A stretch of 64,000 nucleotides of DNA, from NCBI GenBank assembly GCA_039621445.1, contig CP154954.1, positions 6,583,425 to 6,647,424 on the forward strand, read 5' to 3'. A program made the translations under genes and the position numbers. Below the pieces are notes generated by a model. It worked only from the letters and a program-made list of their open reading frames with translations. It searched no databases and had not been told where the DNA came from. This document shows, one piece after another, positions 27,601-48,799 of this stretch. This DNA comes from Euglena gracilis. Its lineage: Eukaryota. Numbering within the stretch: the first letter of the stretch is position 1; every line of letters starts with the position of its first letter.

Positions 27601-30600
27601 AATGCCGACCTCTCCTGTCGGCTACGCAGCAGCCGCTGCCAGTCACGGAGGACATGGTGGGCCAGCAGCAGGAGGTGTTCTCCCGCCTCGGCACCTCGCG
27701 CGAGGCCCACCGACTGCGGACTCGGCTGCAGACTGGCTCGCTGCAGGCGTGTGCAATTTTGTTTTGGTGTGTGGGCGGCGTTCCTGTTGGTGTGGCATCA
27801 CGGACGATATTCCCACACCCAACAGACAGACAATTGCATTTGCCACCAGTTCCTTTTGTCAGACGGAGCACGCTGCCAATGGCATTGGTGGTGAAATATG
27901 AAATATGAAATGAAATATGAAATGGTATGAAATATGAAATATATGAAATGGTGTCAAGAACCTAAGGCCCGAATGGAATCACATCATTTTTGAAACATGT
28001 GGTTGACGGCTCACTTGTCTTCCAGATTGATGTGTTTTGTTGCCTTTCTTGCTCAGAAGATCGTTCTTGCTTATCGTGTGTGCGTCTGTGCATCTTTTGC
28101 GATGTCTTTTGTGTCCTGTGCCGTATGTTGATACACCATCTTGTAACATGCTATGTGTACGTGTTCCCTGATGAGTCTGCCCCTTGGAAAACCTGCTCAA
28201 CTTCCACACCCGCCCAACTCGCCCAGCTGATCTTACTACTCCTTTCGGGGGGAAAATATGCCCCTTTGCATTTTTTTTGGGTCGCTTTTTTTAGGGTTCA
28301 TGCTGCATTCCTGGTCGTGTCTCGCGTTTGCTGTTTCCTGTTCCCTTCTTCTCAACCACAGTCGGACATGCAGGCGTTCAAGGCGGCCAACCCGTTCGAC
28401 CCGTGCCTCGTCGACTTCGTGCGGTGGTACTCCCCGAAGGACTTCAGTGCCGCCCGGCTGGCAGACTTCGACCGGGAGCATGGCCTCAACACGGGCTGCA
28501 CGGTGGGACCCCACGAGGCCCGGGAGCTGCACTGTGCGCCGCATCCCCGTGGCCTGGGAAGTTGCTCTGAAAAGTCATATGTTTTGTCATTTTCGCGTGT
28601 GTTCTTGTGTTGTTGATTTTTTAATGAAATAAATCGTCCATTGTTACAATTTCAATTATCATGTTACATGCACATATTGGATATTGAATATGAAATAGAT
28701 ACTGTAATTAAAAAAGACAATAGATCAATAGATAATTATGTGATGATTCCATTTTCATTTGCATGTGTCCATGCATATTATGTAAACAGATTTTATGCAA
28801 ATCTCATAAACATCTGAACCTGCTTTTGCTTTCTCGGGTTCTTTGTGGTTTCTCGAGGTTCTATTCGTGAATCTGTTTTCTGTGCTCTCAAACGAGATGT
28901 GGCGGACCGCTTGAGCGCTCGCATGCAGGAGCCTGGCAATGTATGGCAGGTACTATGGGAGGAGTCTGCGGCGCTCCCGGCCTGACCCCCTCCTCGTCCT
29001 CCACATATCACTCCAGGGGATGGCAGCGTGCCTCCAAAATTGTACCACTGTGTTGCGGGGGTCCTCAAAGTAAATATGGTCTAAGGATGCTTGATTTCTC
29101 CATCAGGGTTTTTTTTTAGTCTTGTTAGGGTGGGTGGGTCTGGCCGAGCCCCCCCTCCCTCTCGGGGGGTCCCCCCAGGGGGAGTGGGGTGTACTTTTCA
29201 GCGCCGAAGGCGCCGAAAATTTGAGAAAAGGAGCTATTTTTAGCATTTTTTGCGATTTTTGGCCATTTTCGGGAAAATTGAGTGGGTCCCTCGGGACCCC
29301 CCCGGGGCCCCCAGGGGGTGGGTGGGGGGGGGGGGACTCCCCCCGGTCTTAAAAAAAAGCCCCTGTTCTCCATCTCCCCGTGGTGAAATTCCTTTCTTCA
29401 TAGAGACCCCAAGCCAAGGGGACAATGATGCTTTTTTTTTATTCTGTTCCTGGCTGAGAATTGGCTTAGAGATCGAAGGTCGTTGGTTAGCGATGCGTTT
29501 TTTTTTGGGCGTTATTTTTTCAGTTATGCAATAATTCGAATCGCAGTAAATTTGCGAATGTTGCGAAGTAGTCTCATAAACCAAATGACATTGATACCAA
29601 AGCAAAGGAATGCCAAAGGAATACCAACCGAATAGCTGAAACTGACAACGTGGCAGTTGTCTCAGCCGGCGACGTTGGGGTTCATGCTTATGGAGGTGGA
29701 TGGTGTCCGCACCCCCCCTCCCCCCCAAGCTGGGGCTCCACCCAGGGACCCCATATGGAAAGAAGGCTGTGTCCTCTTTTGGGTACTTCCAGCCAAGGGC
29801 CAATCAGTCAGAATTTTAGACGGACCTCCCCCTAAGAACCCCTTCCCCGAACAAGATAATGATCTTACTGAGGTCGTTAGTCGCCAATTCAGGAGGTGAG
29901 AACCCCCCCCCCCCCAGTCTCCCGGCCATAAACCTATTCATTTGCCCCCCCCCCCCGAATGCTGGGGTGGGGCTGTGGGGGGGGGTCAGCGGCCAGTTTC
30001 AGAGCAGCGGCAGGGGTTCGACGCGGTGCGGGAGGCCAACGTGGCACTGCACTTCCTGGAGCAGCTGCCGGTGCCCGAGGTGTTGCCGGGGCCTGGCGAC
30101 TGGTCTTGGCCGCCCAAGACTTCCGGAATGTGGCGCATACTGCGGTCCGTTCCAGCAGTGAATCTGAAACGCAGCAGAAGGACCGTCGGAGCCCCCAATG
30201 CCTGTTTATTCATCAACTGCTTTGGCCGCTCTGCCTTTTCTCTCTCCTTCAATTTGCCCGCACTCAACTTTCGGCTTGACTAAACCCATCAAACCTGATT
30301 AAAGCTTCAGTTTTTTTTTTTGGCACCGGTGTGCCATTACCCGTCGAAAACCCCCCAAAATTTGAACCTTCACAAAGCCCTCGCGCTCCAAACACTTAAC
30401 CCACTGTCTGCCATGCACAGGTGCTGCAGTGCCTGGCGGACCACTGGGTGGTCATGGCGTTCGCCGCCCTCGCCCACGCCCCCATCACGGCGCTCGTCCC
30501 CCACGCCCGCGCGCACGCCCAGCGCCTCGCGGACGCCCTGACGGCGGCGCTGGTGCCCGGCCGCCCCCTCTCGCTGGAGAGGTGTGCGGGGCGGGGGCAA

Positions 30601-33600
30601 ACATGCTTGGCTTGCCATCCCTCGTCCAAGAGGGTGCGCTGCAATTTCCTTTTCCAGTATTAGTACAGATTTTTCATTCTCTGACTGAAAATGTTTGTCG
30701 CATAGAAGCAAATTCTTTTTAAAATTTTTCGTACATTCTGTGGACATTCAAATGTCCACTTATGTCCGCTTATAAAAGTACCTTTATGTATATGTAACCC
30801 AAAACCGAACCCTTTCCCAAACTCTAACCCTAAAACCGTAACCCTAATCCTAACCCAATCCCAACCAGTATTGATGAATCCCCCTCCCCCGGAGGTAACT
30901 GCTTTCCTCTGGACATGCCAATCCCAACGTTTTATTTGCTGTTTACTTGACTTTGTTTTTGTTTTGTTTTTTTTTGGGTTGAACGATTTCCCTTCCCTCC
31001 AAAATACATAAATTTTTATAAGTAATAAAAAAATAATAATCATAAAATCATAAAAGAAACTACCCACTTAGTTTAGTGCACCGAAGTCGAAGTCCAGGAG
31101 ATTTGGTAGTTTTGGGTGGAAAAGTTACTGTTTGGGCAAGTTTTTCACATGGCCCCTGTTTGCAATTTGGGAATTCTCACACAACACATGCTCCATTCGA
31201 CGTTCATTTCGGTAAAACAGGTGTCCCAAGCCTCCTTCGTCCCCCCCCACCAGGGAGGTTTATTATGCCTTCGTTTTGATTTTGTTGGCCCAGGGGCGTC
31301 ATCCGTGTGTGTGGGGGGTGTGGGCAGGGGGGGAACACAAATGCGGTTTTTTTTGGTTTTTTTGGTTTTTCGAATTTTGGCAAAATTTGTTTTTTGTGTT
31401 TTGTTTTCCTGACACTTTTTGGATTTTTGTTACATCCTGGGGGAGCACCTGAAGGATTTTATATGCAATTTGCGTTTTTTTTTTGCGTTTTGATTGCCCT
31501 TTTTTTTGCCCTTTTTTTGCTTCCTCCCACTGTTGGGGGAGGCATGTTGTCGTGTTTATTAGTGAATTTTCTGCGGTATCTTGTGTAGACGATTCGGGCC
31601 GGCCCGGCTTGGCCCCCACCCGCCTCCCCGACAGGTACGCGGAGGTGTGTGACCGCCTCGATGCGGCAGAGGCCGCCGGCGCCGCCGCGGTGTCCCTCCT
31701 CGCCCGCTTCGGCTGCCCGCCCACTGCCACCCCCGACGCGCCTCTTGCGGACGGGCTTCTTTTAAAGCAGCTATCCCCCCCCCAAATGCCCTGGATTGTT
31801 TTTTTTTTTTTTTTTTTTTTTGTCACCAGGCCGAAGTTCAAGGTGAGTCAGACCCCATCCTAGGGGGGTGACCGCACCCAGATCCGACCCCCCTAGGGGG
31901 TCACATGGCCAACATTGACTGGGCACTTGGCCAAATCACTTCCAGTGCCAAAGGTGCCGGAAGCCCAGAAAAGACCTTTTTTAGGCACTTTTTGGCCCAC
32001 GACTCGACAGGGGGTATTGCCTGCCTGCCCAGACACTCCAGGGCACCCCTCCCCCCTCCCCTAGGGCCGGTCAAACCCAGCCTGCTGGACCCCTCCAGCG
32101 CCGGGCATTACATTGGGGGCGGGCTAAACCTTGTCTGAAGTACGTTGGATGTTGTGGACAATTTTTTTTTGATGCTGTCCCACAACCCCCGGACTGCCTC
32201 CGCGGTGCACAGCAGCCTGCCAGCGTCCCTCGTGTCCCGCATCCTGGACTCCGAGGTGACTAGGCTGTTGGAGGCGACAGTGGAGGAGTGGCACGCGATG
32301 GCCCGGCCGCAGCTGAGCCGGTACCCGATGTTTTTTAATAAGGTTTAGTGACCCGGGAGGTGTGCTGGCTGGCGGGTCTGGGCTGAGCCCCCCCCCCCCC
32401 CCCCTTGGGGCAGGGGGTCGGGCCAAGTGGGTGCCCCCCTGCCCAAGCACCTACAGTAAAAATGGCCGAAAATGGCTGAGAATGGCCGAAAATGAGAAAA
32501 ATTTTGTTGCATTGTTTTCAAGGTTTTTTGTCTGACAGTTGCTTTTTCCCTGAGGGGCAATTTTCAGTGTGACTGATGCTTGTCTCTGTGCAGCCTCTCT
32601 TCTTTTGTTATTATGCCTGGCCCTGCAACACATGCTGCTCAATGAACCACCCCCGAAAGGGTTATTTGGGCCAAAGATTTTGGTGACAAGGGTGACGCTG
32701 GCATTTTTTTTTGTATATTTTGAAGAATTAAACCCATTTTTGGGATAATTTCTCCACAAATCTCCAGTATTACACCCATCTTGGCCAATTTGGATCAATT
32801 TTTGCTAATTTTGGGGATATTTTGCACTGATTTGGCAAATATTGAACTAATTTGGGTCACATTTTATGGCATTTTTGGTCGTTTTGCGCCATTTTAGTGA
32901 TTTTGGGTAATTTTTCACAATTTTTTTTGTGGATATTGTTGGCGTTTTTGGGCAAGTTTAGGTTATTGAAGCCATTTTAGGTCATTTTGGTTGCTTTTTG
33001 GGGCCTTTTGCGGTCAATTTTAGGCTTTTTGTGGTCTTTTTGGGGTTTCTGTGGTCATTTTGCTAGGTTGGGAGCCAGTGGATGCAGAGTTTGCAGATAC
33101 TGGACAAGATGCAATGGATGCAGATGCTGAACAAGGTGCAGACACTGGACAAGATGTCGACACTGGACAAGATGCAGATGCTGTACAAGATGCAGATGCT
33201 GGACAAGATGCAGATATTGGACAAGATGTAGACACTGGACAAGACGCAGATGCTGCACAAGATGCAGATGCTGGACAAGATGTAGATGTTGTTCAAGATG
33301 CAGATGCTGGACAAGATGCAGACATTGGACAAGATGCAGATGCTGGAGAAGATGCAGTGATATAAGTGAAATATTTCAACATTATGGGCCGATCACATGT
33401 TTGCTTTTTTGTTCTGCCGCTCAAGCTGAGCGCACTTTCTCCCAATTTCGCCACATCCAGACGGACGATCGTCTCAACATGACGGATGAAATTTTACATC
33501 AAGGCTTCTTTGAAGTCATGCCTCTCTTGTCCTGCCATTATGCCTGACTGTGGAACACATGCTGCTCAAAGAACCACCTCCGAATGGGGTATTTGGGCCA

Positions 33601-35583
33601 AAGCTGATGGTTTTGATGGCATTTCAGAAAATTGTGGTGACAAGGTGCAACCGGCAAAGTAAGTATGCGAGGTGTTTTTTTCTCTGTTAAAGGTGTGATT
33701 CCTGCATTAGGTTCATTGCACACAAGTGGATGGGATCTAACAGTGCCACCATCAAACAATGTTGCTTGAGGTATCAAGTTGGAATAGGTGAGGGGAAGTT
33801 GTTTGTGAAAAGCATCCACGCCAAGAGGCTTGAAGAGAAAAGCACCAGTTTTGGTGTTGCCACCCACCATTGTGGTTAACATGTCATGTGCCAACCACTC
33901 TCATGAAGCGTCCCAAGAACCCCCAGCAAAAAAGACCAAAGTGGACAAGAGCCTCTCTGGCAAGAAAAAAGAAGCCTATTCCCAAAACCTTGCGTTTGCA
34001 TATTGCAACAAAAAGCTCTTTGACCTCTTTAATCCAGGGTTCGATATAAGGAGGGCGTACATGGTTTAGGTGGGGGGGTGTCCCCCTCCCCCCTCCTGAC
34101 CCGCGGGGGGGTCCGCCCCCCCCCCCCCCCTCACCTGCCAGGGGGGTCCGGACCGACCCGGGGGGGGGGGGTACCCAGGACCCCCCAAAAGGGCAATTTT
34201 TTCCTCCGGCGGAGTTTTTGGTAATTTTTTTTGTTGCAACAGCCAAATGTTTTCTTTCGGCTCCTGCACTGCACGTTTATTTGCTTGTTCTTTTGCAGCC
34301 GATGTCTCGCCAGCTTCCTTTGTTTATGTGCTGCTTGCGCTTTGATTTCGCTGGATGTCAAACTTTTGGCCCGGCGCTTTGCGCCGGGCTGAAAATCGGT
34401 CACCCGGACTGCGCCACTGTTTAGGTGGGGGGGTGTCCCCCTCCCCCCTGGCCCGCAGGGGGGGGGGGTCCGGACCACCCCCCACCTGTCCTTATATCGA
34501 ACCCTGCTTTAATCCCTGAGCACCCATTCCAAAGGACCTCCTTGGATGCGTTAGCTTGTCACGACTGCTTGCATGTTGACTGAATGATCAAAATGCATTG
34601 TTGGTATGAAAGAGTTTTAAGGCAGCTTTACCCCCCACCTATATGGCCGAAAATGGCCGAAAATGGCCGAAAATGGCAAAAATCTGGGGGTCAACTATAG
34701 GTGCTTGCCCCTGCCTAAAGGGGGTTTTTTACCCTTTAAGAGTGGGTCCCCCCCCCCCTGTGTGCCCCTGGGTGTGGATGGGTTGGCCCTCCCCCGGTTG
34801 TGCTGTGCCGGACACAGGGATCGCGCTGGATCCTCCGAGGATGAATTCTTTGCCGGGCCTCAAAGGGCACGCGGTCCTCCGCTGTTGTGGTACATCTTCC
34901 CGGGATGATTAGCGTTGCTTCGGCCGGCAGCCAAGGGACGTCATCGCCCGCCACCCCGTCGTCCGCAACCCGGCCTGAACGTCCTGACCCCCCTACAGAT
35001 CTTCAGCCAAACCGCGGGTTGGGAACGTGTTTCTAGGTATCGCTTAGGAGACGTTTCCCAAACCTTGAACCAGGGAATGGAATGGTGTGGTGCTCCTTTG
35101 GTACCCCCCCCCCCCGCCGGCTTTGTTGCATTTATTAAAAGGGCGTCTCAACATCGCCCCAGAAACCACCATTTTCCACCCCCATCCCATGGTTGCGGTG
35201 GACCATCTGTTTGTCCCGCCTGACTCTTCTTGCCCCTGAGCTTTGGTCTTTGAATGGACCCCGATGAATGCCTTTTTTTTTGGCATGTTTATTTTTGTGT
35301 TTTTTTTTTTCCCCAATTTTTAGCAAAAACCCCGTATTTTTGCGTTTTTTTTTATGGACTCCCCCCCCCTGGTGGGAGAGTCCACCGTCTCCCCCACCAG
35401 GTCTTCCCATGCACTCCGTCTTGGGGCCAACAGCATGCAGCCTGGCGGGACGGGCATGCCCCGGGCCGGGCGGTGCCCCCCGAGGAGCGGGAGTACCGGC
35501 TCGGGACGGAGGACGGGCTGCAGCGGCTGTTCGCCGGCCACACCGCCGCCGGTGTGACCCTCGCCACCGCCCTGGCCTTCTGA
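4556..35583 (+). CDS. RAB3GAP1: Rab3 GTPase-activating protein catalytic subunit, multi-exon. Approximate exons: 4556-4636, 8126-8204, 9269-9390, ~10275-10420, ~10560-10723, 12125-12260, 12643-12770, 13378-13485, 13912-13953, ~14990-15067, ~15515-15575, ~17258-17410, 20821-20940, ~21690-21785, ~22765-22915, 23344-23396, 23949-24009, 26473-26630, 27620-27746, 28362-28533, 28897-28978, 29995-30079, 30421-30581, 31635-~31745, ~32205-32320, 34818-~34870, ~35433-35583
   Basis: Exon translations give Rab3GAP1 motifs in the expected order: FEIADFSTVTAWERL; TWGTTADPIEQLRCELRWP; LWRRFAEAVRLFWE..GPPDWSSCLLHQ|KLQMVNACI; LFIP|ATQQPLPVTEDM..LGTS..LQ|SDMQAFKAANP..DFVRWYSPKDF; LSARMQEPGNVWQVLWEE; EREYRL..QRLF..LATALAF-stop. 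The first exon/start codon and some internal exons are tentative. Confidence 0.9.
7330..7880 (-). pseudogene. Possible decayed non-LTR retrotransposon reverse transcriptase fragment
   Basis: Minus strand gives a frameshifted AF-DSVSH (cf. KAFDSVSH) and a downstream GVKQ; no YADD motif seen. Confidence 0.3.
12261..12642 (+). other. Nonconventional intron
   Basis: T|ACC-GCTGTTTACGGGGAGAGG ... CCTCTCCCCGAACAGC-AGCTT|G; long stem; in frame. Confidence 0.7.
16555..17205. repeat. AT-rich low-complexity ATATT/ACATATT repeat
   Basis: Visible directly. Confidence 0.9.
17585..20577. mobile_element. 3-kb non-autonomous DNA transposon with ~70-bp TIRs and 5-bp TSD
   Basis: TIR CTTAGGCGGCC(T/G)AATTCGCACTTAA...TTGCGCAAATTTACGATTTTTTTG at both ends; ATGCT at 17580-17584 and 20578-20582; internal arrays of TGATGCGCGCATTTGCGCAAAT (~18260-18780, ~19740-20180). 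Confidence 0.85.
23397..23948 (+). other. Nonconventional intron, ATG...CAT stem
   Basis: T|GCC-ATGGCTGCCATGAG ... CCCAAGGCAGCCAT-CCCCC|A; in frame. Confidence 0.65.
24830..26445. repeat. Degenerate CA/CT/CG low-complexity tract
   Basis: Irregular CAC/CTCA/CGCA runs, possibly poorly polished sequence. Confidence 0.85.
26631..27619 (+). other. Nonconventional intron, GAG...CTC stem
   Basis: C|GCC-GAGGGG ... CCTCTC-CTGTC|G; joins LFIP|ATQ, position constrained by Rab3GAP1 homology (LYIPVTQ). Confidence 0.75.
28362..28533 (+). CDS. RAB3GAP1: Rab3GAP1 catalytic-domain exon
   Basis: SDMQAFKAANPFDPCLVDFVRWYSPKDF matches the family signature SDMxxFKAANP..DFVRWxSP; preceded by a pyrimidine tract and CAG. 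Confidence 0.93.
28979..29994 (+). other. Nonconventional intron, CTG...CAG stem
   Basis: C|GGC-CTGACCCCC ... GGGGGTCAG-CGGCC|A; required because an in-frame TGA follows the exon; joins ALP|VSEQRQGFD. Confidence 0.8.
29104..29365. mobile_element. hAT-type MITE
   Basis: Ends CAGGGTTTTTTTTTAG / CTTAAAAAAAAGCCCCTG; perfect 8-bp TSD TTCTCCAT. Confidence 0.9.
33078..33357. repeat. 18-bp minisatellite (GGACAAGATGCAGATGCT-like), ~15 copies
   Basis: Direct tandem repeat visible in the sequence. Confidence 0.9.
34035..34506. mobile_element. hAT-type MITE
   Basis: 18-bp perfect TIR CAGGGTTCGATATAAGGA; perfect 8-bp TSD CTTTAATC (34027-34034, 34507-34514). Confidence 0.92.
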
Positions 35584-36964
35584 CCTCCCCTGCCCTCTCA
35601 CTGACCAGTGCGGTCCGCCGGCTTCCGCTTGCCACTGCAGCGCCGCGTGCCATCCAAGAGCTGTGGGCTGCCCTCCCCCCACAGTCTATTGGCGGATGGA
35701 GCGTGGCAGGGCAGGGGACTGCGCGAGCATCAGTGCGGTGTACAGTGTAGCCGTGGCGAGACACGGGGAGGGTGTTGGGCAGGCATTTGGGCCGGTACAC
35801 GCCAAGCCACGGCCTGAGCATGGCCATGCCCATGCTCTGTCTATCTAGATATCTCTACCTATCTAGCCATGTCCATGGTGTCGGGGGGGGGGGAGGCGAA
35901 TGGCAGTAATTGCCTCCTGTTTGCCAATCCTGTGTTCCGGCCAACACAGCCTCCTGCCCTGCGACAGGTGCGCCGTTGGCACAAATCCTCTGCGACCCAA
36001 TCACGCTGGCTCCAGTGGGCACCCGCAAGGGTTCACGTGCTCAATTGTGTTCTTGGTTTGCGAGAATTTAGGGCTCTCATAATTCATTGCTGCCTGAAGT
36101 GCGGAGTTGAACATGGGTGCCATATTCTTCAACCGTTGCTGGGGAGTCTGCCATTGCCAGTAATATGTTTTGTGTGGAAAAAATTCCCCCGACGGATGAA
36201 ATGTCCTCAGGTGCACTCCACTGTGTCTCCCAAACCATGAAAAAAGCAAACAATGGCCTTTGAATAATCTGCACAGCTAACTGCAGAATAAGGAAGACTA
36301 CAGAATCCAGGAAAGTCTGGATTTCAGTGTGTCAAATCCTGCCCCACTTACAACTCCCTCATTGTTACAGAGTGCGGCTTGGTGTTCGACCCTGATGGGG
36401 TTTTATCGAGAAGATTCAATGCTCCTCTGGAATTTCGACATTTTTGACCACAAAATAGGTCAAAAATGGGCGAAAATGGGTTGGAAAAGGGCTGAGAAGT
36501 AATTGTCAGTTTTTTTGGACATTTTTGCAGTTTCGATTCTTTTTGGTACCTGGTTCGACCCCGGACCCCGGACCCCTGGGGGGGGGTGGAGGGGGGTCAG
36601 CCAGATTTTCCAGCCTCTGAGCTGGACCCCCTGGAAGGGGGGGGGTCGATAAAAAGTGCCCTAGTGGGGAGCGGCTTTCTGTGAGTGGCGTTCATAAGTG
36701 GAAGTGTTTGTGCAGTACATCTGAGTTGGTCAAAAAAGTGTCTCAGTTGTTGCACCACATACCCGAGGCAATGGACAAGACACTTGCATATGCACCTGCG
36801 GGGTTTACAAGACGCAAATCCATAACGAGCAACCTAGTTTCGGGAGAGTTGCCGGAGCGATTTGGGGCAGGTGAGACCGAGCGCTGGACGATACCATTGA
36901 CTTCGACTTAAAATGTTGGTTGCACAATCGCGCAAAGGGACTATTCGCTCAAATGCGCATACGG

Positions 36965-37258
36965 CAGGCTTCTTTTTTCCAACCTGGGGGAGAGGGGGGG
37001 ACGCCATGGGGCATGCCCACAGCAGGAACCCCCCACCCCAGGAGATCGGCTTTGGGTCCCGGTGCTTACCAACTTTCCAATTTTCCCTTGAAAATGACCA
37101 TTTTCAGGCCCCGCGCCGGGGGGCGCGCCGGGGGGGGGGGGTCAATAACAGAAACACCCCAAAAACCTGACCCCTCCGGGGGGTCGAAAGTGTCCTGCCC
37201 CCCCTACCTGCCCATAGCATCCACCCCCTGGGGGTGAACTTCCTTTAAAAGGAGCCTG
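36965..37258. mobile_element. hAT-type MITE
   Basis: Left CAGGCTTCTTTT, right reverse complement CAGGCTCCTTTT; decayed TSD GCATACGG/GCACAGGA; a related end in inverse orientation starts at 48260. Confidence 0.6.
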
Positions 37259-37673: not shown

Positions 37674-39800
37674 ATGCCGAAGTACGCCCCGGACTTCTGG
37701 CGCAACAACTACCTCGACATGTCCTCCGCCGGCGGGGGCGACGCGGTGTGGCAGACGATGGGCGCCACCGCGAAGCCCGCCGCGGAGGGCCAGGCCGCGG
37801 GCAGCAGTGCCTACGACACGTGTGCAGGGTGGGGCCAGTCGGAATGTGCGAGTGTCCCTTTTTTGGCACGCAACCCAGCCGACCTTTCCCACTTTCGTTT
37901 CGACAGGATGGAATCCCGCATAAACCTGAATTTTTGTCACCCTTGTGACCACCCTTCGGAAGGAACATGCAGGTCATGTTGGTAAGTACAATTGTTCCAG
38001 GGCAGTTTCTCATTGAGGACAGTTACCCCAGGTGGGGGGAGGTGGGGGGAGGATAATTGAAATGGGTTGTCATAGAATTTGAGGACAGTTGGGGATGGAT
38101 GTTCAGAAAAAGGGGACGGTGCAACGCATTTTGAAGTCCGATTTTTAAACAAGCTGCAACCCGACCAGGGTTTGATATAAGGAGGGTGTTCGGGGTTTAG
38201 GCGGGCCCTCCTGGACCAGAGGGGGGCGTCCGGACCCCCCACCTGCCAAGAGGGGTCTGGACCCACCGGGGGGGGGTAACCGGGACCCCCCCCCCCCAAA
38301 GGTCAACTTTTCCTTCCGGCGCTTCTGCAACCCGACCAGGGTTTGATACAAGGAGGGTGTTCGGGGTTTAGGCGGGCCCTCCTGGACCGGAGGGGGGCGT
38401 TCGGACCCCCCACCTGCCAAGAGGGGTCTGGACCCACCGGGGGGGGGGGGTAACCGGGACCCCTCCCCAAAGGTCAACTTTTCCTTCCGGCGCTTTGCGC
38501 CTTTTTTTTTTGCATTTTTTGACAAATTTTTGCCCAAAAATTGCCCAAAATGGCACTTTTGGCCGTTTTTGGTGGGCCAGACCGAAAATTTTTGGTGCTG
38601 GGCCAAAAATCAGCGACTCCCAGACCGTGCCACTGTTTAGGTGGGGGGGGGGTGTCCCCCACCTGCCCTTTTATCAAACCTGAACCCAACCTGATGATTT
38701 ATGTTTGATTACCGCCAATTTAACATCATTTGCTTTGTGCCACTGATCCACTAGATGATTCATGGACTCGTTGGTGGGTGACGTTGTGTGTGGAAATGTT
38801 TTTGAAGTGTGTCTGGGCAAAGATGACGGGAAACAAAGATGACGGGAAACAAAGATGGCCATCCAGTATTTCTCGTCATTTCTTCCCATCTTTTCTTCCT
38901 GTCTTTTTTTCCCATCAGTTTTTTTCCGTCAGTTTTTTTCTGTCAGTTTCTCCCGTCTTTTTCCTTGCCGTTTTTTTTTTCATGGGTTTTCCAGTCCTTT
39001 TTTTCTGTCAATTTTTCCCGTCATTTTCCCCGTCATTTTTTCCTGTCATTTTTGTCCCCCCTCCCCAGCCTGGGGTCCCTCCGCCCTGGCACCACAAGGG
39101 GCTGCTCAGCCTGGCGAAGACACACGCCGCGGCGGCGGGGCTAGGGGTTTTCTAAAGCTGGAGGGGACCCTACCCCCCCAGGAGCCAGCACCTTTTTTCC
39201 AGCCAGCACCTCCCAGCCCCCCCCCCCCCCCAGGGGGTCCGCTGACAGAAAGTTCAGGCCAGCCGGTGAAGAAGCCAGAATGGCAAACATTCTTGAAAAA
39301 TGAAAAATGGTGGGAAATGGCGTTTTTGGGTGGGTTTGGGGGTTTTCCCTCCAAAAATGCAAACCCAGCTGGCTTTCGGCTTTTTTTTTGGCTTTTTTTT
39401 GGGATACCTGCCGGGTCCAGCTTCCAGCTGGCTGGACCCCCCCACTGGACCCCCACCCCCAGGGGGGGTCCAGCCAACTCCTTCTTCCAGCTGGCCCATG
39501 GGACCCCCCCCCCCCCAGGTCCTTAAGATAACCCCTGGGCGGGGCAGGTGGCGGCTACGAAGGGGACGTGCAAGCGCTGCGGCGCCACAGGCCACCTCAC
39601 GTTCCAGTGCCGCGGTGAGGCCGGCGCCCGGATAGACTGGCCGCTGGTGTTTGCTTTGTATTTCCAATTAACATTCCAAGCCCTAAAGTCACTTCCTCTG
39701 CAAGTTTGCTTCTTCTTCTTCTTCTTCTTCTTCTTCTCTTCTTCTTCTTCTTCTTCTTCTTCTTCTTCTTCTTCTTCTTCTTCTTCTTCTTCTTCTTCTT

Positions 39801-39831
<31 letters not shown>

Positions 39832-42800
39832 TCGTTGTTGCTGTTGTTATGATTCTGATTCTGATTCTGATTCTGATTCTGATTCTGATTCTGATTCTGA
39901 TTCTGATTCTGATTCTGATTCTGATTCTGATTCTGATTCTGATTCTGATTCTGATTCTGATTCTGATTATGATTACAATTATGATAATGATTATGATTAT
40001 GATTACGATCATGATCACGATCACGATCGCGATCGCAATACGATCACAATTTCAATTACAATAACAATTACAATTGCAATTATTATTGTTGGTGTTGTTC
40101 TTGTTCTTGTTATTATTATTGTATATATTGTTTTTACTATTATATTATTATTACATATTTCATTATTACTCACTCAATTTATCATTTTCAATTTTTTTTC
40201 AAAATATAAATTAAAAAAAATTCATAATGATTTCATGCGTTACTTATACTCATTCACGCACAATTATGAAATCACAGGTCTCCACCTGTGATGCTTTTGC
40301 GCCCCTCCCAGCTCTACCGCCTATGGCCCGACGCTTCAAGGGGTGGCGCCTACGCAACGGGCGGGGAAGAGGTGGGGGACGCCTGGACTACCCGCCACGG
40401 CTAACGCGGGAGGGCTGGGGGGGAGTCGGGTGAGGGGAGGCCCTAGGGGCCAACCTTTTAGAAACAGGGGGGGGGGGTGGCCACGCATCGCTGTCTCGCC
40501 TGGTGGGGTGGACGGGGGGTCGTCGGCCGTCCAATCGGCTTGCACCAGGGCCCCGGTTTCCGATACCGCGGGGGAGGGCGTTACGGGCCTGGGACAGGGA
40601 GGCAGGGTTCGGGCGGCCGGACGCCAGGCGGTGCCACTCTCGGTTCGGGGACGTGGGGCGCGGGCGGATCCCCGGGGTCCGCTTCCCCCCTTTCCTGGCG
40701 GGGCACGTGGCGTCTGCCGGAAGGGCGGGTGCAAGAGGCAGGTGGAGGTCCGGCCACGGCCTCTCCTTCCCTGCCAAGGGGAGCATGAGGGCCGCTGCGG
40801 TGGGTCTTTCCGATAGGGGGTATTCCCCCTTCCTCCTTCCTCTCTGGGTTGCAGTTGGTTCTGCCTTTCTTCACCCTCGGTGTCTGATCGGATTCTGTCG
40901 CTCGCTCTCTCCCATCTTCTCTCACTGTCGTCCCTGCACGGACCGGGTGCGGGGGGATTCTCTCTTCTTCTGGAGCACTCTCCTGGCGGGGGGATCTGAG
41001 CTTCTAGCAGCCCTTCTGCCTTCTTTCTGATGGGGAGTTGCTCCCAGGTGTTGGGGAACCTAGGGCTGAGCAGGGATGGGGATGATCCTACGGTCGGGGG
41101 GGTTCTGATCATCCTTCAGGGAGCGGTCCGCCTCTGAACAGGACTGCGCGGGGGGGGATTACAATCATGCGCACGGGCCGCCCAGCGGCGGGCGGGTGGG
41201 TGGCGGGGTGGTGGTGGGGGGTTACGGCCTGGCTGTTCTGTGTTCTGTTATTTTGTTTGTTTTGGCCCTTTACTTTTAATTTTATTACATGGAAAAATTA
41301 TGGGCTGTTTATTTTTCTTTTGATTTAGTTGTTTTTTTTTTCTTGCTCTGTGATGCTTGCAGGTTATTTAAGCTCAGTTCTTCATGGCGCCTCGCCCCGC
41401 AGAGAAGGCAAGACGCTGTGACTTCTTCCCACCCCAGGCCGTTTCAGCCGCCACTTTGGGGCTATGGGTCCCGGCTGGGAAAACCCAATGCGTGGCGGGT
41501 GGGTCGACCCCCCCCCCCCATCCTGGTGGGTGGGTGGATGGGTGGGCAGGGCCAGTCCCCCACCACCCCTTCCTGTGACCCGGGGTTTCTAGGCCACAAA
41601 TGCGGATTCCGTGCCCGGCGCCATCGAGGGGTCGACCGTCCCACCCCCACCCGGCCTTCCCGTACCGCCCGGGTGGTCCCCGGCGGCGGCCTCCCCCCAA
41701 CCACATGCGGCCGTCGGGGCCGGACCGGGCTGCGGAGTCGTCGGGGAAGGCGATGCCGGAGCGGTGGGAGATGCCCAGCAGCACCAGCAGCGTCTCGAGC
41801 GAGGAGGAGAAGGCCCCCGACGCGGCCCAGGCCCCCCCTTTCCGCCGCACGTCCCACGCAGCGTGTAGCTTAAGAAAATTTGCCCCCCCCCCCCTCCGGG
41901 GCGGGGTCTGGCTAGCCAGCAGCCTTTTTCCAGCCTGCCCCCCCCCCTCAATGACATTATTTTATCTTTCCAGCCGCCCTTTGGGCAGCTGGACAGTAAC
42001 GGGTTTTCGTTTTTGGGGGTACAAAAATGGTCCAAAAATGGGGCGAAAATGGGTCAGATTTGGCCTGGCCAGGAAATATTTGGGGTCAAAAAATTGATTT
42101 TTTTTTTTTGCATAAGTGGCAGTTTTTTTGAACGTTTTTGCACTCTCGATTTTTTGGGACCCAGTTCGGCCCCAGGTCGGGTCCAGCTCCAGCCCGGGGG
42201 GGGAGGGAGGTCAGCCAGCAGCCTTTTTCCAGCCAGCCCAAATTTTCCAGCCTCTGAGCTGACCCCCCTCCCCCCGGGGGGGGGGGTTGAAGTTAGCGCC
42301 GGCCATAAACAGACAAGAAGCCTTAGTGCAACTAAGGGGGGGGGGTTGTTAAAAAAACGCCCTGGTCCCACGGTGTCACCGACGCAGAAGGGTTTTAACA
42401 GGTCGGTGCCCCCCTGGACGGCTGGGACGGCTGGGAATTTTGAGTTTAGTTTGGATAGATAATGTTCTATTGATGCCGAAAATCATTTTTCTTCCCCGAG
42501 TTGGGCTGTTTTTTGTTGGCTGGAACTTTGGCGTTTTGTTTTTTGCTCTTTCGGAGTAAATTCTGCTGGTCCGAATTTTTTAAGGTATTTGAAGGCATTT
42601 TGGGGCATTTTAAGGGTTTTTAAGGTGGCTTAAAATGTCATAATGCCTGCGGCGGTCGGCCTGACCACCTACGTCCAACATGGTCGCTGGAGGGGGGCCT
42701 GTGTTCTTGACAGTGATGTTGAGGAGAAGGCCAAACCCCCCGATTGGGTGGCTGCCAGCACCGCGAGCAGCAACGATCTGTGAATTTATTTAAAAACTTT

Positions 42801-45749
42801 TGCTTCGTTTCCTTTGCAGAACACTGCGCAGATTATGCCGACACATGGACACGATTGAGACGTCAAGGCAGGGGGGGGGATGGGGGCGTGGGTGGGTCCG
42901 CCCCCAGGGGGGGTGGAGTCAGGGAGGTGGAAAATATGTACTATACATTTTTTCCAGTTTTTTTTTGCAGTTTTCACGTTTTGGGTTTTTTGCAGTTTTT
43001 TGCAGTTTTTTTGCAACTTTTTTTTGTTCCAGTTTTGAGGAAACCTAAGATGTTTATTTTTTGGTGCTTGTTGTTTTGGCGACAAAGCCACAATTACTCC
43101 CCAACCAAAATTGCTCCCTCTCCAACCTTTGCATTGTAGGAGGTTTGAACAATGTTGAAGGTTGTGAGGGCAGTCGTCAAAGGAGTGCGCAAATTACAAC
43201 AGGTAACCGACATCTTCGTTCCACCCCAATACCTGATGCATATTTTTTTGCGCATGACCTTGCTCTGACCCCGTCTGATGCAGTTGTTGAGTCTGCATTC
43301 AGTCGGCTGAGGATGATTTTGGCAGATCGTCGGTTACGTTGGAGTTCTGACGTTGTTGAGCAGCGCAACAGTTCAGTGCTCGGCGTGCATGCTTCAGGCT
43401 CAAGCGAGCCGACAAAGGCACAAAGCGACGTGCGAAGGGTATGTCTAAAGGAAAAGGCAGACTCAACGTCGATGTGTCAGATGAAGGTTGCTTGCGAGTA
43501 CATTTCGTTCAACAGTAACCTCCACTTCCCCGTCCTCCTCCTCCTTCTTATCTTCATCGTCTGACCTCTCCTCTGATTAAAAGAACCCGATAAAGCATGT
43601 TGCGATGATGTTTTCTTTGCATTGCCATGCCATTCCAATGCTCATCCCATGTCACACCACTCAATGGACCGAAAGTTCCAAATTGAACATCCCCTGCAAG
43701 AATTGAAAGCATCGAATATTTCTGTGTATGGGTTTATGTGCAGTTTTTCCATATTTAGAGAGGAAACCATTTGGCATCATTGTGGGCATGATGGTCGGTG
43801 TGACCCGGCATCCAAACACATGACTTGCATTTCAGTGTATGAAATACCGTATACAGTGTACCTTGATGGACTGCTTCCATTTTTGTCTTCATCAGCTCCA
43901 AAGCTGTGCAAAAAAGTTAGGTCAATTGGGGCGTGCTCATGTGGTCACAATTTACGTTGTTTTGCATATGCACACCATTTCAGCTTGTTTATTGTCTTTT
44001 TTTTGTTGAAGTGCAGTTTTTTGCAGTTTTTGCAGTTTTTTTTTGCAGGTTTTTTTTGCAGTTTTTTGCAGTGCAGTTTTTGACTGGCCCATGCGCAGTT
44101 TCTCCCCCCCCCCTGGTGGAGTTCTGGCCGAGTGGTAGCCCGCTGGAGGGGGGGGTTTCGAAGCGCAAAAACTTTTTGACCCCAAAATTGACCCCCAAAA
44201 GTGGGTCCCTCCAAGCCCTCCCCCGGGTACCCCCAGGGGTGGTGGGTGGGTGGGTGGGTGGGTGGGTGCGGACCACTTTTAATGGAAACAATGCTGTCAA
44301 GGGACAGCGGCTGGAGTGCTGCGGAGCCGCTGCAAGAGTTTCGAGAAACCAGATGTGGGGTACCGCGCCGTGCCAGCACCGTCCAAACGCCATCCTCCCC
44401 CTCATTGCCGGGTGTGTTTGCCCTCTGCCCCGGAGGGTCAACCTCCGCCACGAAACAGTGGGCCAACGCCGCGGAACGCCGGCTTGGCAGGGGCCCGCCC
44501 TCGACGGGCTCCGAGGCCGCGGGGGGGCCCAGTTCCAGCGCGACGAGCAGTACTACGCCCCCCGCCCAGGGCTGCCTGTGTGGAGAGAGAGGCCGAGGAG
44601 GAGGAGGACGGGGTGGCCTCCCCGCCCCCATAGCGGGAGGGAGGAGGCGGAATCGCACGTTTGGATTTCCGGTGGGTGGCGGTGGAGGGGGGTCCCATCT
44701 GGTGGTGGGGTTGGGGGGGGTCACCCACTGCTTCCCAGTTTTACGGTGGCGCCGAAGGAATCGCCCCTTGCAAAGTCCCATTTGGTAGCCTGTCCATCCA
44801 TCTTTCTATGAATCTATGCCACACACCCAGCACAGCACCACACAAGGAAAACGTTGACCTAAAAGTCGGCACCCCCAGAAATTTGGGAAGGCCTCGTTGG
44901 GGGTGGGGGACCCCATCCCTCCAAGGCCCGGGAAAAGCCCCCCCCCCCGGGTCAGTAAGTGAATCTATGGTGTGGGAGTCGACCCCCACCCCACTAGGCC
45001 TTCTCGTACAACGGGTCAGGATAAGCGGCGGAATAGTTTTTTTTTAACCAGCCCCCCCCTGGCCAACATGCAGCCGTGCCCCTGCCGCCCGCCCTCGCCC
45101 CCGCCGCCCCGGGCGGCGGTCCCCGACGACGCGGACGGCACGGAGGTGGTGTTCATCCCGGAGCCCCTGAAGCGGCCAGGGCGGTGGGGTGGGGACCGGG
45201 GCCCGGTCTGCTGCCTCAGACGCCCCAGACGCATTGGGCCCCTGAGGCGCCCCGGGACGCCCGAGGCTCCACTGGCGGCAAGGATGAGGGTTGCAGATGT
45301 CTTGTATATTTTGATATTTAGTATTTTATTAGTTTTAGTATAGATATTTAGTGTTTTATGTTATTATGTCTTATATTTTGGTATATTTTGATATTTCTCA
45401 TGGGAATGTTCATTATTGCCTCAATAAAAACACTACAATGAAGTTCAACTTTTGTATGAACTGAAGTTTAAAGAAATGGCAACTGCGAAAAATGTGGGTT
45501 TGAATTTTTTTTTGGTGTCAAATTATCAAGCCAAGGGGGTGAAGGTTTTCTATCACACGAGAGGTTCTCTCAGACCCTGAACTTGCCATCTTGGTCTGTC
45601 ACCAATTGTCACCAACCCTTTGGTGACAATTTGCAGAAGAGTATCCATGTCAACTGCAATAGGCCTGGCTTTGAGTATACACTACACACACACGCGCACG
45701 CGCGCGCACGCACGCACGCATGCGCGCACGCACACACACATTTGCACAT

Positions 45750-45780
<31 letters not shown>

Positions 45781-48502
45781 TGCACGCACGCACGCACGCA
45801 TGCATGCACGCACACATGCACGCACGCACGCACGCACGCCCGCTCACATGCACACACACACCCACACCCACACACCCACACCCACATTTGTATCTTGGAC
45901 ATTTAATAGATCCAGATTATCGAACCAAGATTTTGCACCACACATCAGATATTTTTTTTGTATTTTAGTGTACATTTTTCACTATCTGAAAAAAAAAGCA
46001 CCAGAAAGTACGGGTAAAAGTCGATCCACCGGTGCACCTGTGAAAGGCTGAAAAGCCTCGCCTTGCCCCACTAGAACCCACCTTTCTGAGGCTGACGACG
46101 GAGCAGCAGCAGCAGCTCAGATGATGGGAGCAGTGAGAGCGAGCAGAGGCGTTCTCAACCCCAGAACATACAATCACTTAGTCACTGGCCGACTTCTCCC
46201 CCCGGGGAGGGTGGATGAGTGATTTTTCAGAGTGACTGACTGGTTATTGGTCCAGACCCCCTACCTCCCGGGTGGGGGGGGGATCAGGAAAATGCCACTA
46301 AAGTGACCCGGCACCAAAGGTGCTGAAAAGTTTTGCCTTTTTTTTTTTTAAGTCTTGTCAATGGACAGGAGATAAATCCATCGCATTTGGTCCAAGATCA
46401 TTGCAGAACAAAAATAGTGCCGGTGACCTGCAGGTTGCAACCTGCAATGTCCAGCGGTGTCAATCATGCGCGATTTGAGTCAGCTGCCGAAAATTCTGTT
46501 TCCTGAGGGAAGAACCCAATGCCCAATTGGGTTGTTCTTTTTTGTAGTCTGGTGCTTCTGCAGATTTTTTTTGCTTTTTTTTTTTTGCTTTTTCTCCCCG
46601 TCATAATGGGTTTTGCTGTTCAAAAAAGGTTGATGCCTTCTCATCCATCATTGAGCTTTAAATTTTCATTTGTAAACCTGGTAAATATTTTCAATGGAAA
46701 GCCAGATTGTTGTGTATTTAGGATTATTGGCCGTCCTTTATTGCATTTTTTTTTGCTTCAATGCCTAAAACTCGGCAACCCATTGGATTTGCAGTTGCAT
46801 ATTCTGGATGGACCCAGGCTTCTTTGCAGGCAAGGGATTTTCTTTGTAGCTGCCCCTGCCCACCAAAATATACACAGCCTTGTTCATATGTTGTGCGCAT
46901 TCCAGCTGAAGGTGTGCTTTGATTCGGGGTGTACCGTTTTTTTCTTAACCGACCACCTTTCCACTCCTCCAGAAACCAGTCAGTCACTCCCCCCCGAAAG
47001 CCAATTAGTCACCCCCTGGAGGGGGGTCGGACACTCTGGAATCCTAGGGAAATTTGACCACAAACGTAGTGCCTTGTGCCGACGTGCAACAGTGCGATGT
47101 CCCCCGCCACTCTTGTTGCCAAGGCCAAGCCATCATCTCAGAACAGGCCACTGCTCAGGGTTCGCAGTACCCGGGGGGCTGGACTGAAGCTAGTCCAAAT
47201 CTGGCCAGCGGAAATCCTAGCGGCGGGGGGTCTGTCAGCAGGGCCAGTTAGTGGGAATTTTTTTTCTGGACCCCCAAACTTGCCAGAAATGCCCATTTTT
47301 GGCCATTTTGGAACAAAACCGCTCAAAAAATGCATCCAATACCTCATTTTCACCTCGACGCGCACGCCAAGGAAATTTTCTTCCAGTTGGAGGGGACCCA
47401 GACCCCCCCCCCCCCCCGAGGCAGGGGGTTTAGCAGTGGCTTTTTTCCAGTGTCCAGCAAATTGGCTGGCCAGTGGAACAACCCCCCCGTGGGGGGGGGT
47501 CCTTAAGCAATGGCCTGTCCCGGAAACTCTATGGGTGGCTGCTTGAAGCGTCGCCCCCCCCCCCCCCCCACCACGCCTTCCCTACATGGAATTGGGCGAT
47601 GCAAGGATGACCACCTGGGGTCCACGCACTCGGCGCACAGCCACCGCCCCCCCCGCCCGGGCGGCCCTGCCAGCAGCGGCGCAGCGCGCCGCAAGAAGGC
47701 GGACAAGGCCAAGAAGCGCCGCCGCAGCTCCGGTTCCAGCTCCAGCTCTGCATCCAAGCAGGCCACTGCTGACCCTCCCCCCCCCCCCCCCCCCCCTTGG
47801 GCCCCGGGTTGTTTAAGGCAACGTGGCCCCCCCCGGTTGGCCCCCCTCGCAGGGTTGAATGCGACTTCTGGAAACTCTATATATGGTCTCTATGGTGGGC
47901 AGGTTTCTCAATAAGGGTTGCTGAACCTCCAGGGGGGGGGGGGGGCTTGACTGCAGCTAGTGCAAACAATGGCCAGTGGAGAATCCAGTGGACCCCCCCC
48001 CCCCCACAGGAGGGGGGGTCTGCTGAGCAGCACTAGCTAGCAGAAGGTGGGTGCTTTTTTTTTTTAATGATGGTCGCACGGTTGTTATGGGTAGGCCGGG
48101 TGGGGAAGGTACGTTCGACTGTTGTGGGAGCTTGTCGGGGTTGGGATGGGTGATGCACAATTCTGGGTGTCGAAGACAATGGGGGTGTGACAATAATCGC
48201 TATCATGGAGAATTCTCCCGCTGACCTGAACGAAGTGAAAGTTTTTTTTGGACCCTCAACAGGCTTCTTTTAAGGGAATTCACACCCCCTGCGGGGGTGG
48301 GTGCTTTGGGCAGGGGGTAGGGCAAAGCCTGCCAATAATGCTCGTTTTTTTTGGCTTTTTTGGGTTTTCTGAAACAAAATAAATATATAATATATAAACC
48401 TCTCAGAAACTCATTAAAACCTGACTTCCAATGTGCCCCCCCCCCCCACCAATTGGGGGACCCCCGGACACCCCCCCCCCCTAACTGAAAAGCAGCAACG
48501 AG

Positions 48503-48589
<87 letters not shown>

Positions 48590-48799
48590 CGCGCGCGCGC
48601 GTGCGTGTGTGTGCGTGCGTGCGCGCGCGCGCGTGTGTGTATGTGTGTGTGCACGCGCGTGCCCTGCAGTGGCGAATGGACCGAGTCCAGCAGCTCCTCC
48701 AGCAGTGGCGACCGCAAGCGGCGGGCGAAGAAGAAGCGCCGCAAGGAGAAGAAGAAGGCCAAGAAGTCCAAGGAGAAGAAGAAGCGGAAGAAGCGCTGA
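37674..48799 (+). CDS. CXIP4: CAX-interacting protein 4-like zinc-knuckle protein with Ser/Lys/Arg-rich tail. Exons approx. 37674-37821, 39094-39138, 39543-39618, 41728-41812, 44533-44563, 45084-45173, 46094-46148, 47641-47755, ~48671-48799
   Basis: Spliced model reads MPKYAPDFW..VWQTMG..AYDTYKGLLSLAK..KGTCKRCGATGHLTFQCR..SSSS..KKKRRKEKKKAKKSKEKKKRKKR-stop, resembling plant CXIP4 (AY..FQGLLALAR..CKKCG..GHLTFQCR). Confidence 0.75.
37822..39093 (+). other. Intermediate intron (GT 5' end, nonconventional 3' end)
   Basis: T|GTG-CAGGGTGGGG ... CTCCGCCCTG-GCACC|A; restores AYDTYKGLL. Confidence 0.8.
38166..38682. mobile_element. hAT-type MITE (same family as 34035) with tandem duplication of its left ~171 bp
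   Basis: Left CAGGGTTTGATATAAGG, right reverse complement CAGGTTTGATAAAAGG; TSD AACCCGAC/AACCCAAC; second left end at 38337. Confidence 0.85.
39139..39542 (+). other. Nonconventional intron that is a hAT-type MITE (element 39142-39537)
   Basis: Left TIR TAGGGGTTTTCTAAAG, reverse complement of right end CAGGGGTTATCTTAAG; perfect 8-bp direct repeat GGCGGGGC at 39134-39141 and 39538-39545; 3+5 excision keeps the frame (AAAG|QVAATKGTCKRC). Confidence 0.85.
39619..41727 (+). other. Probable nonconventional intron (CGG...CCG stem)
   Basis: GA|GGC-CGGCGCCCG ... CGGGGCCG-GACCG|G; in frame QCRGE|AAESSGK. A GT donor at 39615 is an alternative. Confidence 0.5.
39709..39968. repeat. (CTT)n followed by (GATTCT)n microsatellites
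   Basis: Visible directly. Confidence 0.95.
41859..42364. mobile_element. hAT-type MITE, CCAGC-rich family
   Basis: CAGCGTGT... / ...ACGCCCTG ends; perfect 8-bp TSD GTCCCACG; internal AGCCAGCAGCCTTTTTCCAGCC repeats. Confidence 0.85.
42920..44115 (+). mobile_element. Degenerate hAT element carrying a transposase remnant
   Basis: CAGGGAGG.../...CCCCCCTG ends flanked by GTGGAGT direct repeats; TTTTGCAG subterminal arrays; contains a hAT dimerisation-domain-like peptide. Confidence 0.6.
43232..43363 (+). pseudogene. hAT transposase C-terminal dimerisation domain fragment
   Basis: PDAYFFAHDLALTPSDAVVESAFSRLRMILADRRLRWSSDVVEQ fits the Dimer_Tnp_hAT pattern P..A...L..P.S....E..FS.L..I....R.R.S...E. 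Confidence 0.75.
44564..45083 (+). other. Nonconventional intron with near-perfect 8-bp TSD
   Basis: Stem CAGGGCTGCCTGT vs ACATGCAGCCGTG; flanks CCCCCGCC / CCCCTGCC (7/8); C|G and T|G junctions; in frame YYAPR|RPPSP. Confidence 0.7.
45174..46093 (+). other. Nonconventional intron
   Basis: C|GGC-CAGGGCGGTGGG ... CCCACCTTTCTG-AGGCT|G; in frame PLKR|RRSSSS. Confidence 0.7.
47144..47517. mobile_element. hAT-type MITE, CCAGC-rich family
   Basis: Left CAGGCCACTGCTCAGG, right reverse complement CAGGCCATTGCTTAAG; TSD TCTCAGAA/TCCCGGAA (6/8). Confidence 0.75.
48508..48660. repeat. (TG)n/(CG)n microsatellite
   Basis: Visible directly. Confidence 0.95.

Follow-up and report, generated by a model that had tools for sequence, protein, structure and literature searches.

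Within a 64,000-nucleotide stretch of Euglena gracilis nuclear DNA (assembly GCA_039621445.1, contig CP154954.1; the whole stretch is called the window here), a 396-bp element with terminal inverted repeats (TIRs) interrupts a coding exon of a gene for a CCCHC-type zinc-knuckle protein. The element is flanked by a perfect 8-bp duplication of the target site (TSD), and a transcript-derived protein lacks both the element and exactly one copy of the duplication. We interpret the element as an intact, hAT-like, non-autonomous transposon that probably serves as a nonconventional intron, a reading to which we give, from sequence evidence, a probability of about 0.68. The 3 + 5 cutting rule of nonconventional introns, by which the cuts would fall 3 nt upstream of a terminal stem and 5 nt downstream of it, fits the 8-bp footprint of hAT transposition.

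Most Euglena introns are removed by a non-spliceosomal activity, the cis-code of which was defined only in 2025. An origin of these introns akin to transposable elements of the miniature inverted-repeat type (MITEs) has been suggested since 2014, with neither a named superfamily nor a demonstrated transposon copy. At the locus described here, a TIR/TSD element lies intact within an exon, and sister elements and hAT remnants occur in nearby non-exonic DNA. The equality of 3 + 5 with the length of an 8-bp TSD would supply a numerical reason for the spacers of the code. If true, our reading would also account for a genome's tolerance of massive transposon insertion into exons, and the question of intron origin becomes directly testable.

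Anatomy of the insertion and its host transcript

The same eight bases, GGCGGGGC, occupy positions 39134-39141 and 39538-39545, and both copies lie flush with the 396-bp element between them (39142-39537). The TIRs of the element, TAGGGGTTTTCTAAAG (39142-39157) and CTTAAGATAACCCCTG (39522-39537), match at 13 of their 16 positions; the site as a whole is ordered GCCGCGGCGGC, GGCGGGGC, TAGGGGTTTTCTAAAG ... CTTAAGATAACCCCTG, GGCGGGGC, AGGTGGCGGCT. The element ends are TAGGGG.../...CCCCTG; one arm starts with T and the other with C, so the first pair in RNA is U.G. Two features of hAT elements are found here, namely an 8-bp TSD and short imperfect TIRs with the terminal motif YARNG (TAGGG at one end, CAGGG at the other). 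The perfection of the TSD suggests that the insertion is young.

Base-paired ends, a feature of nonconventional introns, are seen both in the 13/16 TIRs and in the end-to-end duplex of the intron. This duplex has a predicted energy of -24.5 kcal/mol, compared to -10.3 ± 5.6 kcal/mol for 2,000 random pairs from the window, 1.6% of which were equally strong. A perfect 8-bp duplication and imperfect 16-bp TIRs had been claimed in an earlier reading of this DNA (hereafter the original prediction), and both were confirmed. Repeat and TIRs together are a real observation on firm statistical ground.

The protein that best matches the coding frame is P0004 (272 aa; source label eukprot:EG_transcript_22677), which aligns to the forward strand between 37674 and 48796 in ten blocks that are exact except at residues 206, 222 and 252. 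Pfam identifies a zinc-knuckle domain, PF13917 (zf-CCHC_3), at 30 bits (cut-off 27). The coding frame ...KGLLSLAKTHAAAAG at 39096-39140 (protein YKGLLSLAKTHAAAAG) is picked up again, past the element, at QVAATKGTCKRCGATGHLTFQCR (39545-39613). Across the insertion site P0004 reads ...THAAAAG-QVAATKG... (THAAAAGQVAATKGTCKRC; hyphen at the junction), and the 404 nt absent from it are the element plus one copy of GGCGGGGC. Two other database proteins, the diverged homolog P0005 and P0006, are likewise uninterrupted at this site. P0006 is itself unusual: a variant of this part of the gene, 129 aa long and from a 529-nt contig, it departs within the zinc knuckle into a repeat-like, G/C-rich stretch, and its upstream part differs as well. 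It could be a paralog or an allele with another insertion, or could stem from unspliced RNA.

An exhaustive listing of donor/acceptor pairs within 12 nt gave nine registers that reproduce P0004, all yielding the identical mRNA with removal of 404 nt, and hence the true cut sites are not readable from the sequence. None of the nine has GT/GC...AG ends. Judged from the transcript-derived protein, then, the segment is absent from the mature mRNA with no GT/GC-AG register to account for it, as for nonconventional introns, and in no register does the element or its TSD supply the GT/GC-AG sites of a spliceosomal introner. The original prediction was right that a GT/GC donor is missing, and its further claim that the mRNA is restored by removal of the element and exactly one TSD appears to hold as well, matching P0004. 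Translation into the element would give ..AAAAGLGVF and then a stop, i.e. a stop after 4 codons, and retention would therefore truncate the protein upstream of the zinc knuckle. From these data, we infer that the window allele is spliced.

Eight-bp duplications and hAT affinity in the window

To assess repeat length, we considered all pairs of window sites with a YAG start and a CTR end, 40-3000 bp apart and with TIRs agreeing at 9 or more of 12 positions (1,011 pairs), and counted those in which the k bases of the left flank were identical to the k bases of the right flank, with offset controls. Three perfect flush repeats were found at k = 8 (control 0.0), compared to none at k = 6 (control 0.2), one at k = 7 (control 0.0) and none at k = 9 (control 0.2). 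The three are the element 39142-39537 and its neighbors 29104-29365 and 34035-34506. Five matches at k = 10 were rejected as artifacts, all being located in the palindromic array 409-1419.

A scan free of the terminal motif gave a similar picture. Here we used 6,685 TIR pairs agreeing at 11 or more of 14 positions, with 1-1500 and 16501-20700 masked and with low-complexity and palindromic repeats removed. Masking was used because the unfiltered TIR/TSD scan was swamped by palindromic arrays (409-1419, ∼17.6-20.1 kb). There were four matches at k = 8 (control 0.62), three at k = 6 (control 2.88), two of which are sub-registers of k = 8 elements, two at k = 7 (control 1.62), and none at k = 9 (control 0.5). 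Beyond the motif scan, the k = 8 matches include 32444-34707 and a weaker candidate, 36345-37192; the filter also removes the elements at 29104 and 53448. Altogether, four to five further TIR elements of the window carry perfect flush 8-bp duplications, and terminal YAGGG(G)TT is common to several of them and to 39142-39537. Given the excess at k = 8 over k = 7, k = 9 and the controls, elements that duplicate 8 bp dominate among the TIR elements of these 64 kb. The palindromic-unit arrays, at 409-1419 (GTCGGCCGAC...) and ∼17600-20130 (TGCGCGCA...), contain many nested inverted repeats and imitate TIR/TSD structures at even k.

Eight-nucleotide repeats need not be made by a transposase; they might also be the footprint of double-strand-break repair that captured filler sequence. 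Such is the published view of the E. agilis gapC gene, in which an intron found in one strain only has eight-nucleotide direct repeats at its junctions, ascribed to break repair (PMC4770533; for this and the other papers cited, we rely on parts of the published text). That intron (gapC intron 4, strain ACOI 323) resembles the one described here in being nonconventional, in its eight-nucleotide junction repeat and in being taken as young, but differs in that presence/absence evidence between strains exists for it and in that break repair was invoked; the likeness is drawn from the published description. For the E. gracilis locus, break repair seems very improbable to us. The repeat is flush against YARNG-type inverted termini, four to five other TIR elements of the window have 8-bp repeats while k = 7 and k = 9 remain at control level, and two of the elements with 8-bp repeats contain hAT-domain remnants.

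Published descriptions give hAT elements TSDs of 8 bp and termini of the YARNG type (PMC3014272), which agrees with the hallmarks cited in the original prediction (YAR-type TIR starts and 8-bp TSDs). The maize Ac/Ds elements end in C/TAGGGATGAAA and have an 8-bp TSD, and Ds1 is ∼400 bp in length (PMC3260210). Protein-level indications of hAT come from two neighboring elements, flanked by 7/8-bp and 8-bp repeats respectively, in which remnants of the hAT dimerization domain are seen. In the CAGGG-ended element 42920-44115, the open reading frame (ORF) 43049-43564 matched five library proteins with E values of 4e-7 to 3e-4 and 62-78% identity over residues 62-106. Scored against Pfam PF05699 (hAT dimerization; cut-off 21.4 bits), P0011 (27.8 bits) and P0009 (22.8 bits) pass, P0007 (21.0 bits) and P0008 (12.2 bits) fall below the cut-off, and P0010 shows no match. 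A protein-atlas search also gave a hAT lead for the remnant at 43232-43366, with a low score. The second remnant, at ∼33428-33520 in 32444-34707, is weak and dimerization-like; hhalign aligns it to the profile of the library proteins with 64% probability (E 6.6e-5). No match came from a PDB sequence search or from BLASTP between the two remnant ORFs, and neither a hAT catalytic domain nor a transposase-coding element with TAGGGGTT/CAGGGGTT ends was detected in the window. Taking termini, TSD length and remnants together, we infer that the superfamily of 39142-39537 is hAT-like.

Four of the library proteins deserve mention in their own right. P0007, P0009, P0010 and P0011 are short database proteins, 62-72% identical to the window remnant, with an Arg/Lys-rich part followed by a Ser-rich tail; P0007, P0009 and P0011 have the hAT dimerization-domain match. 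Possibly they represent the ends of transposases, or else derivatives that were domesticated.

Other superfamilies with 8-bp duplications exist, and the obvious one is Merlin, given that it has been reported in E. gracilis: two families, both with 8-bp TSDs (PMC8101967). Were the element a Merlin, the hAT label would be wrong and the logic of 3 + 5 = 8 would be kept. The lack of a transposase with matching TIRs in the window leaves room for this. However, Merlin is characterized by TIRs ending in 5'-GG together with TSDs of 8-9 bp; here the TSD length fits and the YAGGG ends do not (PMC8101967). Moreover, the only transposase remnants in the 8-bp-TSD elements of the window are hAT-dimerization-like. 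We therefore think it quite unlikely that the element belongs to Merlin or another such superfamily.

Fit to the Euglena splicing code

In Euglena, nonconventional introns follow the code N3-CDG...CH'G-N5-6/R, where the slash marks the start of the downstream exon (PMC12501133). The donor spacer is strictly 3 nt, the acceptor spacer is 5 nt or, less well, 6 nt, the exon begins with a purine, and pairing is needed in the ∼12 bp inside CAG/CTG. Every tested substitution in CAG or CTG impaired function: no transcript was detectable after a CAG-to-TAG knock-in, and CTG-to-CTA blocked splicing, with the intron retained in unspliced form. In E. agilis, 61.2% of nonconventional introns lie within the strict code, and by subtraction 38.8% lie outside it. 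The same paper classes 84.4% of introns as 'slidable' via junction repeats and suggests a MITE origin, an old hypothesis that the original prediction also mentioned as suggested before; repeat length does not appear in the portions of its text covered here (PMC12501133). Likewise, a 2024 review, in the portions covered, refers to the CAG/CTG ends as TIRs and describes the repeats at the junctions as TSD-like, giving neither a length nor a superfamily; it also describes nonconventional introns as released in the form of circular RNA and removed later than conventional introns (PMC11282704). Our search of the literature found no paper that ties the introns of Euglena either to hAT or to TSDs of 8 bp, although figures and supplements outside that search (PMC12501133 Fig. 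1B and SI Fig. S3; PMC4770533 Table S3) may hold the distribution of repeat lengths.

One of the nine registers, GGC TAG...CTG GGCGG/G, satisfies the spacer lengths, the CTG and the purine rule of the code, and this is the register in which the intron would presumably be cut. With 3 nt of the left TSD and 5 nt of the right TSD cut away, the excised piece equals the element plus one TSD. The proposed sequence of events is as follows. A 396-bp DNA transposon, hAT-like and non-autonomous, would have inserted into the coding exon and duplicated an 8-bp target. In the pre-mRNA, the TAGGG.../...CCCTG inverted repeats would pair, with TAG and CTG contributing the trio U.G/A-U/G-C at the base of the stem. 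Cuts by the non-spliceosomal activity of euglenids, 3 nt upstream of the stem and 5 nt downstream of it, would then excise the element with exactly one TSD and restore the pre-insertion frame ..AAAAG-QVAAT.. without a scar. Splicing of the intron, if it occurs, depends on a U.G as the first pair together with a long stem.

Compared to introns that obey the published code, this one is alike in lacking GT/GC-AG ends, in its terminal pairing of ∼15 bp, in allowing 3- and 5-nt spacers, in its CTG at -8 to -6 and in the purine (G) that opens the next exon; it differs in having TAG rather than CDG, U.G rather than C-G as the first pair, and nine slidable registers (PMC12501133). Thus, of the pairing between +4 to +6 and -8 to -6 in the original prediction, the CTG half stood, whereas the triplet it gave as often CAG is TAG here. 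The arithmetic of 3 + 5 = 8 = one TSD agrees with the published spacers of 3 nt and 5(-6) nt, and our reading of it is consistent with the code (PMC12501133) and with one published young intron (PMC4770533). The idea that such an element becomes a scarless intron in either orientation fails here, because the reversed copy reads CAG...CTA and the CTA variant blocked splicing (PMC12501133). Of the predicted hAT-MITE intron as a whole, then, the TSD, the TIRs, the loss of one TSD and the nearby hAT-like elements were upheld, while orientation independence and a canonical donor triplet were not.

How do the other introns of the zinc-knuckle gene behave? Eight of nine introns (span 37821-48682) could be resolved, the exception being intron 8, and none of the eight has GT/GC-AG ends. 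Introns 1 and 7 fit the code, with GTG CAG...CTG GCACC/A and GGC CAG...CTG AGGCT/G, respectively; intron 1 begins with GT yet ends with CC. Intron 3 has the 3 + 5 geometry, but GAG/CTC in place of CAG/CTG. Introns 1, 3 and 7 thus share this geometry with the 39142-39537 intron. Intron 4 combines CAG...CTG with a 7-nt acceptor spacer and with a terminal inverted repeat that is perfect over 10 bp (CAGGCCCCCC/GGGGGGCCTG), and introns 5, 6 and 9 depart from the code. The older introns have junction repeats of 0-3 nt, and among the resolved introns of the gene only the 39142-39537 intron is 'young'. Long (CTT)n and (GATTCT)n microsatellites occupy 39710-39968 within intron 3.

Several observations weigh against our reading. 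First, position +4 is T where the code demands C, so that the strict form N3-CDG...CH'G-N5-6/R does not describe this intron (PMC12501133). Second, the TIR stem is absent from the minimum-free-energy fold of the whole intron, the stability of which is ordinary (z = -0.83; 21 of 100 shuffles equal). Third, the older introns with 3 + 5 geometry show no repeat signal: identities between the TSD halves, counted by hand, are 0/8, 3/8 and 2/8, i.e. chance level. As to the transposon itself, hAT elements have a weak target consensus, nTnnnnAn, from which GGCGGGGC departs. A blastn search of the element against the 64-kb window returned short G/C-rich matches only and no second copy, and exact-pattern metagenome scans did not find one either. 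Pfam run directly on the window ORFs yielded no hAT domain, which makes the hAT link transitive, via the library relatives and one hhalign match of moderate probability. Finally, residues 206, 222 and 252, at which P0004 and the window disagree, lie toward the C terminus of the protein, and P0004 must therefore come from another allele, strain or assembly and is not exactly the window haplotype.

This last point keeps alive the alternative that P0004 reflects a transcript of an insertion-free allele. Under such an insertion polymorphism, the element would be a recent insertion in one allele or strain and would knock out that copy, and the uninterrupted transcript would come from an allele or paralog without the insertion. 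A young insertion, as the perfect TSD suggests, would suit this scenario, as would the TAG in place of CAG, which breaks the tested code and, as a CAG-to-TAG variant, left no transcript (PMC12501133); P0006 indicates that divergent copies of this region of the zinc-knuckle gene exist. On the other hand, exons 1-7 of P0004 match the window at 100%. The other cis-requirements are all present, namely the 3-nt and 5-nt spacers, the CTG, the exon-initial purine and a stem matching at 13 of 16 positions with U.G as its first pair, and the strict code leaves out 38.8% of the nonconventional introns of E. agilis (PMC12501133). On balance we consider a polymorphism of this kind unlikely, and return to the element as a nonconventional intron.

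Transposons acting as introns are known from other systems. Ds1 elements of maize are removed by the spliceosome at cryptic GT/AG sites, usually imprecisely. Removal of the E. gracilis element, by contrast, appears exact, with no GT-AG available. The two are otherwise similar, both being ∼400 bp long, with a C-type and a T-type YAGGG end, an 8-bp TSD and removal from mRNA after insertion into an exon (PMC3260210). The introners of Micromonas, Aureococcus and dinoflagellates are also TIR/TSD transposons turned introns, in which the TSD aids exact restoration, but they supply or co-opt spliceosomal sites, whereas a stem and fixed spacers would here serve a non-spliceosomal activity (PMC11282704).

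Extending the reading to nonconventional introns at large, which make up 71.8% of E. agilis introns, is tentative and somewhat doubtful. Euglenid non-spliceosomal splicing could be an RNA-level excision matched to hAT insertions, in which case a large share of nonconventional introns would be eroded hAT-like MITEs. The link is that the 3 + 5 ruler around a stem closed by CAG/CTG equals the 8-bp hAT stagger, so that an exon insertion of any such element with a purine at TSD position 6 would be removed without a scar. More speculatively, P0007 and P0009-P0011, which join hAT dimerization to a Ser/Arg/Lys-rich tail, may be domesticated partners of the splicing machinery.

Neighboring elements and genes

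Coordinates of the insertion, its host gene and the other TIR elements are listed below.

Table 1. Features of the insertion site, host gene and related elements, in window coordinates
Position	Strand	Feature	Context
37674-48796	+	Gene for CCCHC-type zinc-knuckle protein (Pfam zf-CCHC_3) in 10 exon blocks	Mapping of protein P0004
39094-39141	+	Upstream exon ending ..YKGLLSLAKTHAAAAG	
39134-39141	+	Left TSD copy GGCGGGGC	Last 8 nt of upstream exon
39142-39537	+	396-bp non-autonomous TIR element, putatively hAT-like, MITE-sized	Body of candidate nonconventional intron
39142-39157	+	5' TIR TAGGGGTTTTCTAAAG	TAG = intron +4 to +6 in 3 + 5 register
39522-39537	+	3' TIR CTTAAGATAACCCCTG	CTG = -8 to -6 in 3 + 5 register
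39538-39545	+	Right TSD copy GGCGGGGC	
39546-39613	+	Downstream exon QVAATKGTCKRCGATGHLTFQCR with CX2CX4HX4C zinc knuckle	
29104-29365		262-bp element, CAGGGTTTTTTTTTAG...CCCCTG, perfect 8-bp TSD TTCTCCAT	Within intron of Rab3GAP-like gene
32444-34707		2,264-bp TIR element, CAAGCACCTACAGT.., TIR 13/14, perfect 8-bp TSD CCCCTGCC, subterminal AAAATGGCCG repeats	
34035-34506		472-bp element, perfect 16-bp TIR CAGGGTTCGATATAAG, perfect 8-bp TSD CTTTAATC	Nested in 32444-34707
42920-44115	+	1,196-bp degraded hAT-like element, ends CAGGGAGG.../...CCCCCTG	Most of intron 5, zinc-knuckle gene
43232-43366	+	Remnant of hAT C-terminal dimerization domain (..LALTPSDAVVESAFSRLRMILADRRLRWSSDVVEQ..)	Inside CAGGG-ended 42920-44115
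53448-53726		279-bp homolog of 29104 element, CAGGGGTTTTTTTTAG...CCCCGG (mutated end), perfect 8-bp TSD GTTGCGAA	

The elements at 29104 and 53448 form a family with two copies in the window. The degraded element 42920-44115 is flanked by the 7-bp GTGGAGT or, counting the terminal G as shared, by the 8-bp GGTGGAGT. None of the sister elements 29104, 32444 and 42920 lies in an exon. For the element at 34035, the flanking ORF gave no protein match, and the element was not placed in a known exon. A single class of element thus occurs as plain insertions within introns and, in one case, in an exon, there acting like an intron itself. The weaker candidate at 36345-37192 is 848 bp long and adjoins the zinc-knuckle gene upstream; it has CACTT... 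ends (TIR 11/14, not YARNG) and is flanked by a perfect repeat of 8 bp, TCCTGCCC.

Upstream of the zinc-knuckle gene, positions 4556-35580 of the forward strand hold a gene resembling the Rab3 GTPase-activating protein catalytic subunit (Rab3GAP; PF13890), with at least 22 exon blocks. We mapped it with an 868-aa, 83%-identical ortholog (∼50-95% identity per block), and the junctions are approximate. Its introns mix several of the GT/GC-AG type with nonconventional ones. An intron of the CTG...CAG type, at ∼28979-29994, holds the element 29104, and 32444-34707 sits in the region of the last intron. Between 24700 and 26900 there is a long C/A-rich tract of low complexity, which reads as (HT)n and has a GC skew of -0.48.

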